DNA from: an uncultured Rivularia sp.
Lineage (GTDB): Bacteria > Cyanobacteriota > Cyanobacteriia > Cyanobacteriales > Nostocaceae
Direction of reading: 5' to 3'
NCBI GenBank assembly: GCA_963665115.1
Contig: OY762007.1
Span: 1,536,001-1,600,000 of the forward strand
DNA length: 64,000 nucleotides
A program made the position numbers and the translations under genes. A model generated the notes under the pieces. It searched no databases. It was not told the origin of the DNA and was given only the letters and a program-made list of their open reading frames with translations. Below, piece after piece: positions 1,429-3,447 of the stretch (position 1 is the stretch's first letter; each line of letters begins with the position of its first letter).

Positions 1429-2907
1429 TTACGAATCTCCCATGTTTTTCAAGTAATGAATGACTGCTTGTGCTGTAGGTAAGTTATTTGCAAGTAAGAT
1501 TTCACGAATATTGCAGGTTCGCAATAGTGCTTCTTCAGAAGCTTGCCCTTGTTGGGGAACGGTTAAATCTCTGATAAAAATTACAGCGATGATTTTTTCT
1601 GAATTTATCAGCGAATTGATTGCTTGATATCCACCAGATGTAGCTGGAGGAATGTCTTCGGTAATGCTCAAACCAGTCTGACGATATATATAATCGTTAT
1701 AAGTTTGCCAGGTTATTGTTTGACAATAGGATAAAAATTCTTCATGTTCGGAAATTAATTCTTTGAGTTCAGACTTTTTAGTATCGTGAGAAATTAATAC
1801 AATTCGTTTTTCTTCTAGAACGGGAGCAATTTTGATAATTAATTCTTCTTCCTGATTGCTTTCTTCTGTTTCCTTTTCTTTTTCTTGAGCAACTTCATCC
1901 TCTTCAGCAGTAACAGGCTCTAATGTTGAGATAGAAGCTTCAGACATTAACTCTTCTTCAACTTCCTCAGTATTTGTCATATCAGAATCTGTATATTCGT
2001 TATTTGTAACTTCTATCATTCCGCTTTCAGCTTCGGTTGTTTCAGTTTCTTCACTCGTCTGAGCAATGTCTTGTTCGTCAGTTTCGGTTTCTTCTTGCTC
2101 GCTTTCTACTTCTGCTTCGGAAGCAATTTCTTGTTCGTTTGAATCAACTTCTTCTTGCTCAACCCTTGCTTGTGGTTCGGTGTCTTCTTCTAGATTTAAA
2201 TCGGAATTATCTTCTTCACTTTCTACTTGAATAGAATCATTGTTATTTTCATGCGAATTTTCATCAAATATATCCCGTGGTTGAACAATAGTATATTCTG
2301 GTTCGGTCGAGCTAATATTTTCTATAGCTTCAACTGGTGTATCTGAAATTTCATTAATTTGATTATTTTGGGGAATTTCTTCGTCAGGTTGAACAAAAGT
2401 TGGTTCTTCGGAATTTCGATTAATTTCCTCAGCGGTTTCAACTGCTTCGCTAACAAAAGATTTGGCAGATTCTTCTGATTGACTATCTAATTGTGCAACT
2501 TCTGCTACTTTATCATTTTGATTTCGCTGCACATGAGAAAACATTGAAGGATTTATGATTCTCACCACCGTCTCTGACTGCTGAGAAAATGATATATCTT
2601 CTTCCAGCATCAAAGCAAAGTCTCCGATGCGGATAATATCGCCATCATTTAAAATGTATGAATGATTTTCTTCTAAAATCTTTCCATTAATGATTGTGCC
2701 ATTTCTGCTACCAAGGTCACAAAAATAGTAATTTCCTGATTGGTAAAAAAACTTACCGTGAAAACGACTTACATCATCGCTATCAAGAATTACATCGGAA
2801 TCAGGAGAACGACCAACTACACATTCATGTCCTCTTCTAGTTGTAGAAGAAAGGTCGATTTCCTCTAATTCATTTTGTGTTGGGGAATTGGATATTTTGA
2901 CTTTCAT
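1429..2907 (-). CDS. FHA domain + acidic linker + degenerate methylglyoxal-synthase-like domain
   Basis: FHA motifs VVGRSPD, VSRFHG, DLGSRNGT. Glu-rich middle. The C-terminus RIVLISHDTKK...IAVIFIRD...ALLRTCN...LANNLPTAQAVI resembles MgsA. Confidence 0.8.
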   Translation of the reverse strand: MKVKISNSPTQNELEEIDLSSTTRRGHECVVGRSPDSDVILDSDDVSRFHGKFFYQSGNYYFCDLGSRNGTIINGKILEENHSYILNDGDIIRIGDFALMLEEDISFSQQSETVVRIINPSMFSHVQRNQNDKVAEVAQLDSQSEESAKSFVSEAVETAEEINRNSEEPTFVQPDEEIPQNNQINEISDTPVEAIENISSTEPEYTIVQPRDIFDENSHENNNDSIQVESEEDNSDLNLEEDTEPQARVEQEEVDSNEQEIASEAEVESEQEETETDEQDIAQTSEETETTEAESGMIEVTNNEYTDSDMTNTEEVEEELMSEASISTLEPVTAEEDEVAQEKEKETEESNQEEELIIKIAPVLEEKRIVLISHDTKKSELKELISEHEEFLSYCQTITWQTYNDYIYRQTGLSITEDIPPATSGGYQAINSLINSEKIIAVIFIRDLTVPQQGQASEEALLRTCNIREILLANNLPTAQAVIHYLKNMGDS

Positions 2908-3059
2908 TATAATTTTTGGTTAATTTTATTGATTTGTGCAACCCATCGCTGACGTGTTATATGGTCGAGATTCAAAACCTCATTTTGCGACCAGTGGAAA
3001 TGGTAGGCAATAAAAGCTACCTCCTCATATAAGGTATCTGAGGGGTAGCTAATTACTCC
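2907..3059 (-). CDS. DUF6760 / P2 gpE'-like small ORF with no canonical start codon (probable frameshift extension of the upstream chaperone)
   Basis: Translated by hand: GVISYPSDTLYEEVAFIAYHFHWSQNEVLNLDHITRQRWVAQINKINQKL*. Its stop overlaps the ATG of the FHA gene. Absent from the ORF track. Confidence 0.75.
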   Translation of the reverse strand, partial: GVISYPSDTLYEEVAFIAYHFHWSQNEVLNLDHITRQRWVAQINKINQKL

Positions 3060-3430
3060 CCCGCTAGTTCTAGCTTGAATTGAAATTCGTTGTCACAACG
3101 AGGACACTGTGTTGAAATACAGGTATTTCCTTGTTGATTAATCCGATTATAAAATTCTCTCAAATAGGAAATATCTGGTAATACAAGCTCCTCCAGTTGT
3201 TCTGGAGTAACAGAATTAAGGCTACCCAATCGAGATATTACCCTTGATAGCATCGCGAGGGTAGCGTAAGCCGGATTTTCTCTGACTTTACGTTCTTGCT
3301 GGACTGATATTTCATCCATCGCAGTAGCTAAACGCATCAAACCCTTACGCTGCAATCGCTCGTGGTTATCAACTAATCCTTTAGGAAGGATAAACGAAAA
3401 TTCAGTGCAAAGTCTTTCTTTTTTAGGCAT
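3053..3430 (-). CDS. Phage tail assembly chaperone-like protein (CIS), with C-terminal CxxC
   Basis: TEFSFILPKG...GLMRLATAMDEI...NPAY...LSRVI..LG...DISYLREFYNRIN, then CPRC. Paralogue of the adjacent gene. Confidence 0.75.
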   Translation of the reverse strand: MPKKERLCTEFSFILPKGLVDNHERLQRKGLMRLATAMDEISVQQERKVRENPAYATLAMLSRVISRLGSLNSVTPEQLEELVLPDISYLREFYNRINQQGNTCISTQCPRCDNEFQFKLELAGE

Positions 3431-3447
3431 AAATAGTACCAATTATC

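Follow-up and report, generated by a model that had tools for sequence, protein, structure and literature searches.

The 64,000-nucleotide stretch analyzed here (contig OY762007.1 of an uncultured Rivularia sp., positions 1,536,001 to 1,600,000; hereafter the window) encodes an extracellular contractile injection system (eCIS) of a cyanobacterium. Directly downstream of its tail tube genes on the minus strand lie two tail-assembly-chaperone-like genes, the second of which we call chaperone gene B. Judging from the sequence, programmed −1 frameshifting very probably makes from this gene a pair of proteins of the G/GT type known from phage tails: a short form, G, and a long form, GT, extended by a DUF6760 domain encoded in the −1 frame (table 1). 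The evidence consists of a slip site, an open −1 frame lacking a start codon, their conservation among relatives, codon constraint and covariation in a downstream hairpin, and a likeness to phage tail chaperones. A preliminary description of this DNA had proposed that the injection system keeps the recoding mechanism of phages. The site, the start-less frame, its conservation and the likeness of the extension to P2 E' support this proposal; the frameshift itself we infer from them.

A Candidate Slip Site and an Open −1 Frame

The chaperone gene had been read as ending GCG GGG GAG TAA with a run of five G (G5), and this is what the minus strand carries (G5 at 3062–3058, stop at 3055–3053). The open −1 frame spans 3092–2907 and has 61 codons from stop to stop, or 50 when counted from the GGA at 3059. 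Its translation agrees with the 50 amino acids given earlier (EVAFIAYHFHWSQNEVLNL..RW) and scores above the Pfam cut-off for DUF6760 (PF20546; 60.6 bits vs. 27). As also described, its stop overlaps the next ATG, base 2907 being common to the TAA (2909–2907) and the start of the following FHA gene. The claim that this frame contains no ATG, GTG, or TTG stands for ATG and GTG only: one TTG is found at codon 40 of the 61, inside the DUF6760 domain after the FHW motif, from which a fragment of at most 22 residues could be made. A second open reading frame (ORF) overlapping the first in a shifted frame without a start of its own is found in the window and in most relatives, the situation being less clear-cut in Streptomyces and haloarchaea.

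Table 1. Features of the Chaperone Locus and of the Genes around It (Window Coordinates)
Feature	Position	Strand	Description
Chaperone gene B (short product G)	3053..3430	−	125 aa, ~14.4 kDa; tail-assembly-chaperone fold and C-terminal CPxC zinc ribbon
Candidate slip heptamer G GGG GAG (0-frame Gly, Glu)	3056..3062	−	Conserved in phase
0-frame stop TAA	3053..3055	−	With 3052–3051, a 5-nt spacer ahead of the hairpin
RNA hairpin, candidate 3' frameshift stimulator	3015..3050	−	12 pairs, one bulged A, 11-nt loop, core GCUACC/GGUAGC
−1 frame extension T (DUF6760, P2 E'-like)	2907..3059	−	50 codons, without own start
Chaperone gene A	3448..3795	−	115-aa paralogue (G-only copy); lacks the zinc ribbon, slip site, and extension
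Two tube genes, directly upstream of the chaperone pair	4955–5410, 4441–4929	−	PF06841; CIS tube chains in PDB
Sheath gene	5521–7191	−	Pfam
Pvc16-type terminator gene	7238–8074	−	Pfam
FHA-domain gene, ATG overlapping the extension stop	1429..2907	−	Pfam

A sequencing error or a recent one-base deletion splitting a single fused gene is a most improbable origin for this arrangement. Fused forms are present in databases, but contigs (not raw reads) of four of four runs carry G5, with no base inserted or lost, and the same frame break recurs in two further sets, in 82 of 86 and in 29 of 29 loci (see below). The contig of run X4 extends across this stretch and differs from it by 13 substitutions without any gap; that of X9 covers 2998–3158, also without a gap. 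The four runs represent three studies; the window itself may stem from X1 and X2, and X4 and X9 come from other studies.

GGG accounts for 10% of the glycine codons in this genome, and an in-phase G GGG GRR at most one codon from the stop is found in 2 of its 6671 ORFs. The slip site is beyond chance: it is rare among the ORFs of the genome, yet kept in most orthologous loci.

Conservation of the Slip Site among Relatives

We gathered 235 loci from genomes, metagenomes, viral contigs, plasmids, and phages, of which 234 matched (L123, without a match, was dropped). Those that were unique and had at least 200 bases upstream (205 of 234) were clustered at <85% identity into 131 representatives. 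In 117 of these, GGGGG lies in the phase G GGG G with the DUF6760 domain in the −1 frame. The in-phase G5 was also found in 83 of 86 cyanobacterial loci chosen by the Pfam model and in 29 of 29 Streptomyces loci. Conservation of the G run and of the −1 overlap in orthologous loci, proposed in the preliminary description as a check, is therefore borne out by all three sets. The 86 cyanobacterial loci derive from 123 DUF6760 places, 15 others having been read before; 60 of them were hand-picked for long frames or weak scores, and the set was not deduplicated and overlaps the first in part. The Streptomyces set represents 29 of 44 DUF6760 places. The collection scans, limited to the best 80 matches, selected on peptide patterns with VA or EVA; residues are therefore partly preselected, and codons are not. 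As kin are not independent, the conservation counts are not probabilities.

The named carriers include Acidobacteria, Myxococcota, Chloroflexi, Actinomycetota, a Sulfurifustis bin, and the archaeon Methanoregula, and plasmids of Rhizobium, Paenibacillus, and Treponema also carry the site. DUF6760 matches were detected in 114 of 401 genomes of the window's class and in 36 of the 61 genomes sampled from the genus Streptomyces.

Codon usage was counted in the 113 representatives with G5 at the standard offset. A G precedes the glycine codon regardless of the amino acid encoded; at other places in the chaperone ORFs, G-GGG accounts for only 75 of 783 glycine codons. GGG is followed by GAA (54), GAG (32), GGG (14), GGA (12), or GTA (1), and never by GAY or GGY. 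The position of the 0-frame stop varies from 2 to 14 codons past the glycine. The fixed G, the purine codon set, and the floating stop characterize a signal in the nucleotides rather than the end of a protein. The restriction to GAR and GGR favors two-tRNA slippage, which is probably the frameshift route and would give a Gly-Glu-Val junction. A junction peptide had been foreseen earlier with Gly-Gly-Val at this place; the codon rule speaks for Gly-Glu-Val instead.

Two relatives have chaperone genes that appear damaged. In L300 (G530:C32:28900-31100), the site and hairpin are intact and the chaperone frame is broken about 25 bases upstream, which may be an error or a pseudogene. On a Treponema plasmid (L234), the chaperone is truncated by an ISAs1 transposase; the G5 site and a compensated GCCGCC/GGCGGC stem persist before a long downstream gene.

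A Conserved 3' Hairpin

A conserved hairpin 3' of the heptamer, which the preliminary description did not mention, forms part of the signal. In the window, the computed fold starts 5 bases past the heptamer and has a free energy of −18.4 kcal/mol (z −4.6; 0 of 200 shuffles). Across relatives the spacer between heptamer and stem is 5–6 nt; 3' frameshift stimulators usually lie at 5–9 nt.

The stem constrains codon choice. In the representatives, the stem tyrosine codon is TAC in 109 cases and TAT in 1 (background 53% TAC), the glutamate codon GAG in 109 and GAA in 4 (background 61% GAG), and the valine codon GTA in 91 of 105 (background 10%; 23 of 96 at the control residue Val40). The stem proline codon is nearly always CCC, and control residues of the same protein are mixed. 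In the genome of the window, TAC, GAG, and GTA make up 34%, 18%, and 35% of their codon families. The loci picked by hidden Markov model show the same bias (TAC 79, GAG 82, and GTA 79 of 83).

When synonymous codons were resampled in the 113 loci, the mean minimum free energy rose from −18.6 to −7.9 kcal/mol. The native fold was stronger in 112 of 113, with z < −2 in 104 of 113, compared with 8–9 of 113 for three control windows. Run on 102 of the 113 loci, RNAalifold recovered the same stem unaided, with nine pairs; the 11 excluded are mostly actinobacterial loci with a re-registered or deviant stem. In these 102 loci, double changes occur in 8 of 12 stem pairs, which none of 500 shuffles reached; having been derived from the window itself, the stem has an advantage over slid controls. 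In Streptomyces, a re-registered hairpin lies at the same place (z < −2 in 27 of 29; control 1 of 29), and in the actinobacterial TYA-type loci the same 5' position pairs with a different 3' partner, the structure being kept and the sequence changed. No Rfam family matched the region 2800–3500 up to an E value of 1.

Could the hairpin serve another purpose, as a terminator, a processing site, or a structure sequestering a ribosome-binding site, with the −1 frame rarely or never translated? We consider this very unlikely. A U-rich stretch does follow the stem in the window, but at least five T within the 8 bases past the stem are found in only 24 of 113 representatives. The hairpin is not among the terminators found by a scan, its loop of 11 nt being longer than that scan allows. 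AGGAGG is present in the 3' arm of the stem in 91 of 113 representatives, but is followed by an in-frame start 3–12 bases later in 4 of 113, and where a start lies out of frame (43 of 113), the frame that it opens is mostly some 12 codons long. The invariant residues of the −1 frame across 66 sequences (listed below) need translation of that frame.

Slippage of RNA polymerase on the G run, adding one G to some transcripts so that the long form arises by normal translation, has about as little to recommend it. The homopolymer run does lie exactly at the junction, and some relatives carry runs of G6–G8, but five G is a short run, and the constraint on the two purines after it and the 3' hairpin fit the geometry of a ribosome. 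The described stimulator of polymerase slippage lies 5' of its site (PMC5009743, in its accessible part), and some loci have at the position of the run a heptamer that is no homopolymer, for example G GGA AAG or G GAA AAG.

Start Codons and Alternative Arrangements

Start-like codons near the site follow the type of the 0-frame stop. Among the 113 representatives, they occur in 29 of 30 loci with a TGA stop, 2 of 66 with TAA or TAG, and none of 17 with a later stop; the corresponding figures in the second set are 15 of 18, 3 of 54, and 3 of 11. This pattern suggests that such codons arise as by-products of NTGA overlaps. At the overlapping NTR codon, the first base has a like distribution in both stop classes, as expected for the Ile, Val, Leu, and Met codons of a read-through protein. 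In the window the stop is TAA, and no start-like codon is present near the site.

These data bear on an alternative that we judge unlikely, in which coupled re-initiation, at a codon that is weak or not AUG, yields the extension as a small protein of its own. GGGGGAG would then serve as the Shine-Dalgarno sequence, and the hairpin would gate access to it. RefSeq lists DUF6760 as a gene of its own in five of eight public records (one "hypothetical" call counted), and two features of the Streptomyces and of two exceptional loci, given below, agree with such a protein. Against it, the window has no ATG, GTG, or TTG near the site, and the ATT that follows its slip site reads ACT in a close relative (run X4). 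Codons 2–4 of the −1 frame vary over dozens of non-start triplets in the 113 set. The preliminary description had considered that orthologues with their own ATG and no slippery run would overturn its proposal; 84 of the 117 G5 representatives have no ATG, GTG, or TTG between the site and the conserved tyrosine. A Shine-Dalgarno role needs neither a fixed phase nor the GAR/GGR rule, and leaves unexplained the replacement of the run by U- or A-rich heptamers. Chaperone and extension also exist as in-frame fusions.

We examined 16 loci without the standard site; most of them have a different in-phase slip heptamer in its stead. T TTT TTY was found in six (the phage-like L115, L116, and L118–L120, and L283), and L117 carries the same run. 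L121 has an in-phase G GGA AAG, two haloarchaeal loci an in-phase G GGA AAY, L130 G GAA AAG, and L223 G GGG GGC. In L193 and in Bacillus phage BCD7, G GGG GAG lies at a shifted offset.

The haloarchaeal copies are on plasmids (L228:4447-5249 and L235) and encode an acidic-tailed chaperone, the heptamer lying five codons ahead of an ATGA overlap into DUF6760; they could use shifting or re-initiation. In BCD7 (L231:4219-5177), gene 0090 ends G GGG GAG TAA and has an unannotated −1 extension before the long gene 0089. Tube genes lie on one side of this site, and the long gene on the other side matches tape measures weakly (1.2e-4). Only in BCD7 and in the phage-like L116 (phrog_28, E 4.7e-75) is the pair followed by a tape-measure-like gene, the canonical phage position.

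Fusions are known at the protein level from three database clusters of one, three, and four members, in which chaperone and extension share one frame without the Gly-Gly site or the zinc ribbon. Of the fused proteins (P0079, P0060, and P0145), P0060 was searched against 151 genomes and matched in 24, by its chaperone half only. In other cyanobacterial injection clusters (L266:600-1388 and L267:429-1439), gp26-like proteins, a distant version of the chaperone, run on in frame from a CPxC ribbon into the extension. Shifted and fused forms therefore occur, and probably a separate form too; short-plus-fused gene pairs are reported in some phages (PMC10885494, accessible text).

Resemblance to Phage Tail Proteins

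Chaperone B matches phrog_508, a tail assembly chaperone family (E 2.8e-8), and PF10109 gives weak matches in 9 of 59 members of the chaperone family. Its structure model has a mean confidence (pLDDT, predicted local distance difference test) of 83. Searched against the PDB, the model places the HK97 tail chaperone 2OB9 first (E 0.037, probability 0.99). In a comparison with 48,161 chains, only 3KLU, 2OB9, and 3FGX reached a Z-score of at least 5: 3KLU with Z 6.9 (root mean square deviation 5.2, 96 aligned residues) and 2OB9 with Z 6.2 (5.8, 91 aligned). We take 3KLU and 3FGX to be tail chaperones as well; their PDB titles say uncharacterised. Among viral models, the matches were BCD7 gene 0090 (top), T4-like hub assembly proteins, and Mu FS-gp41 (E 6.7e-4). 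The profile of the chaperone gave no match among the sequences of solved structures, and that of the extension two, both chance-level designed proteins. By its sequence and its modeled fold, albeit with middling Z-scores, the upstream gene is classed as a tail assembly chaperone.

The extension had been likened to P2 E', and profile alignment agrees (hhalign, 94%, E 1.3e-7). PF06528 matches 31 of 66 members of the extension family (best E 6.5e-4), and the residues E13, H22, W23, H33, and R36 are invariant across the 66 sequences. A search with the extension profile finds 753 clusters at 50% identity. A predicted complex between tube A and the extension scored 0.00 with an uncertain partner fold, which speaks neither for nor against binding.

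Proposed Mechanism and Points against It

We propose that the hairpin would pause the ribosome at G GGG GAG, where the Gly- and Glu-tRNAs would re-pair from GGG GAG to GGG GGA with a single G:U at a middle position. Most ribosomes would terminate at the TAA and release G (125 aa), the major form. A minority would slip back one base and read the DUF6760 frame, giving GT (174 aa, about 20.4 kDa). By analogy with lambda, many G and few GT may coat a long lumenal client, and the T part may recruit tube subunits. In this cyanobacterial layout, the G-only paralogue A would supply additional short form. Re-pairing of Glu-tRNA at GGGGGAA has been proposed for annotated phage chaperone frameshifts (PMC10885494). 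In lambda, G binds the tape measure and T the tail subunit, at a ratio of 30:1 (PMC5009743), and a frameshift efficiency of 6–7% is given for an HK97-like phage chaperone cluster (PMC3711429). The supplement of the latter has three GGGGGA rows; the two displayed in its accessible part are both unrelated. Further phage frameshifting in the accessible parts of PMC5411513, PMC12846349, and PMC11375127 amounts to one example.

Several observations weigh against programmed frameshifting as the source of the pair. Streptomyces loci have a GTG at the third −1 codon in 29 of 29 cases (27 by a GTGA overlap, 2 with a TAG stop); this GTG also falls within the stem, and own or coupled initiation is possible there. 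Among actinobacterial G5 representatives, 13 of 14 have a nearby start codon. L095 and L220 carry no slip heptamer at all and have an ATG in a TGA stop overlap, and the haloarchaeal copies have an annotated ATG besides G GGA AAY. As regards the hairpin, its core is almost invariant and overlaps conserved residues of non-independent kin, the double changes in core pairs rest on one or two sequences each (L013, L098, and L234; also L304 and L310), two inner pairs hold in fewer than half of the sequences, and the BCD7 site has no strong hairpin (−2.4 kcal/mol). The Z-scores of the chaperone fold are middling (6.9, 6.2, and 5.3), and hhalign found no match between the chaperone G domain and P2 gpE. 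In Escherichia coli, the clearly shift-prone tetramers are A_AA.G, U_UU.Y, C_CC.Y, and A_AA.A only (PMC4066793, in the part accessible). The G run alone may be weak, and poor slippage of G-run tetramers by themselves fits a low, stem-dependent rate. Finally, no tape-measure gene follows the pair: an FHA gene does in the window and a tube-like gene in many other clusters, and a scan of 29 window proteins did not find one.

A broader reading is more tentative, and we give it slightly less than even weight. A large class of cellular injection systems said to lack a tape measure would have kept the phage G/GT pair together with a hairpin-driven frameshift fixing its ratio. The pair would fill the place of the missing factor: by threading a long cargo of tape-measure type into the tube, it would govern loading or length. 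The DUF6760 "genes" of bacteria and some archaea would then mostly be the recoded tail of one protein.

Organization of the Injection Cluster

The eCIS genes lie in two arms. The minus-strand arm, characterized by Pfam and phrog profiles, encodes the Pvc16-type terminator, sheath, two tubes, two chaperone-like proteins, and the FHA protein; the plus-strand arm encodes a third tube, a 1599-aa repeat protein, the CIS tube initiator, spike, gp25, baseplate J, and an AAA ATPase. The clustering of sheath, tubes, Afp16-type terminator, spike, gp25, baseplate J, and AAA ATPase identifies an eCIS, and the single spike gene, the single baseplate J, and the absence of an afp14 match are compatible with eCIS lineage II. 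Among the matches listed, the closest named relatives are cyanobacteria, chiefly Nostoc, Calothrix, and Rivularia. A locus tried as a stand-in for the Anabaena thylakoid-anchored system (L215) was rejected, its tube having no solved-structure match at E 1e-20.

The whole genome contains one DUF6760 match and two chaperone matches, all within the window. The start of chaperone B was set by alignment at the ATG at 3430; the alternative is an upstream TTG at 3442. Chaperone A also matches phrog_508 (E 6.4e-4), and the paralogue alignment with an E value of 1.8e-43. It is present in all 58 cyanobacterial loci of window-like layout with enough flank, and many clusters of other layouts hold a single recoded chaperone gene. 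Chaperone A is nearer to the single chaperones of other phyla than chaperone B is. No sigma-70-like promoter was found in 2800–4500.

In many cyanobacterial loci, the start of the FHA gene overlaps the extension stop or sits just after it. The injection cluster of the window is interspersed with FHA proteins, Ser/Thr kinases, a two-component pair, and a CHAT protein (1429–2907, 8911–15391, and 29905–41072), which suggests phospho-regulation. The 1599-aa protein, rich in Pro, Gln, and Thr, consists of tandem repeats without a Pfam match (16593–21392, plus strand); its gene is flanked by those of the third tube and the CIS tube initiator. It is a candidate lumenal or length-setting client; the tube proteins are further candidate clients.

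Other ORFs of the window appear interrupted. On the minus strand, a 413-aa Ig-like ORF with an odd Ser-rich tail overlaps a WD40-like ORF in a different frame (81–1322 and 2–376), possibly one gene split by a frameshift. On the plus strand, within 10815–12984, a kinase-like start (10815–11108) overlaps a 657-aa ORF, and a CHAT-domain ORF overlaps the next ORF near 14790 (13795–15391). Both frame breaks could be errors or pseudogenes.

Comparison with Known Systems

If the frameshift is real, expressing, recoding, or deleting these clusters would unknowingly alter the short-to-long ratio. DUF6760, a Pfam family of unknown function, gains a testable role, as does the chaperone, which the injection-system papers searched do not name. 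The pair may hint at how systems described as having no tape measure control the assembly of their tube and the loading of cargo; cargo related to tape measures is reported in Streptomyces (PMC11126660 and PMC13277306, accessible parts). A widespread cellular −1 frameshift cassette with a hairpin unmatched in Rfam would also be added to those known.

The core genes of the window are those of lineage II eCIS, which have two or three subtype-specific genes without a known domain and generally lack afp14 tape-measure homologues (PMC6899500). The words chaperone and frameshift are absent from the main text of that paper, as is frameshift from the main texts (supplements apart) of PMC10020575, PMC11126660, PMC13277306, PMC8894136, PMC11566945, and PMC13266070. 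PMC10020575 lists sco4251, a possible counterpart of the window chaperone, as of unknown function. We found no report of G/GT-type frameshifting in the literature on injection systems, supplements and most subscription papers being outside the search, and no use of the name DUF6760 in the literature searched.

Like gpG/gpGT of lambda (PMC5009743), the window has a chaperone after a tube gene, an overlapping −1 frame, and a predicted short and long product from one gene, and its chaperone model matches the HK97 chaperone 2OB9. Unlike in lambda, the pair belongs to a cellular injection cluster and no tape-measure gene follows, which sets it apart from a plain G/GT pair. It also has G GGG GRR with a conserved hairpin, a zinc ribbon ending G, and an extra G-only paralogue. 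The lambda slip heptamer is G GGA AAG, and a heptamer of this type is present in the relative L121. P2 gpE/gpE+E' (AF063097, PF06528) shares the contractile tail, the gene order sheath-tube-chaperone, and an extension that aligns with that of the window, but P2 shifts at a U run and its gpE does not align with the window G domain. Mu FS-gp41 is likewise a structural match to the chaperone model. In the T4 gp26/gp51-like "baseplate hub" chaperones (phrog_150), the C-terminal half of the BCD7 gene 0090 type aligns with the window chaperone (94.6%), but those proteins have two domains and about 260 aa. The "fivetwo" GGGGGAA of SEA-PHAGES annotations (PMC10885494) has the same five-G heptamer and Glu-tRNA re-pairing with one G:U. 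Unlike those phage annotations, which carry no experimental test according to the accessible text of that paper, the cellular clusters keep GAG, GGA, and GGG variants together with a hairpin. The frameshift mechanism and a nearly identical heptamer are thus already known in phage tails, whereas their occurrence in injection systems and the hairpin as a candidate stimulator appear new.

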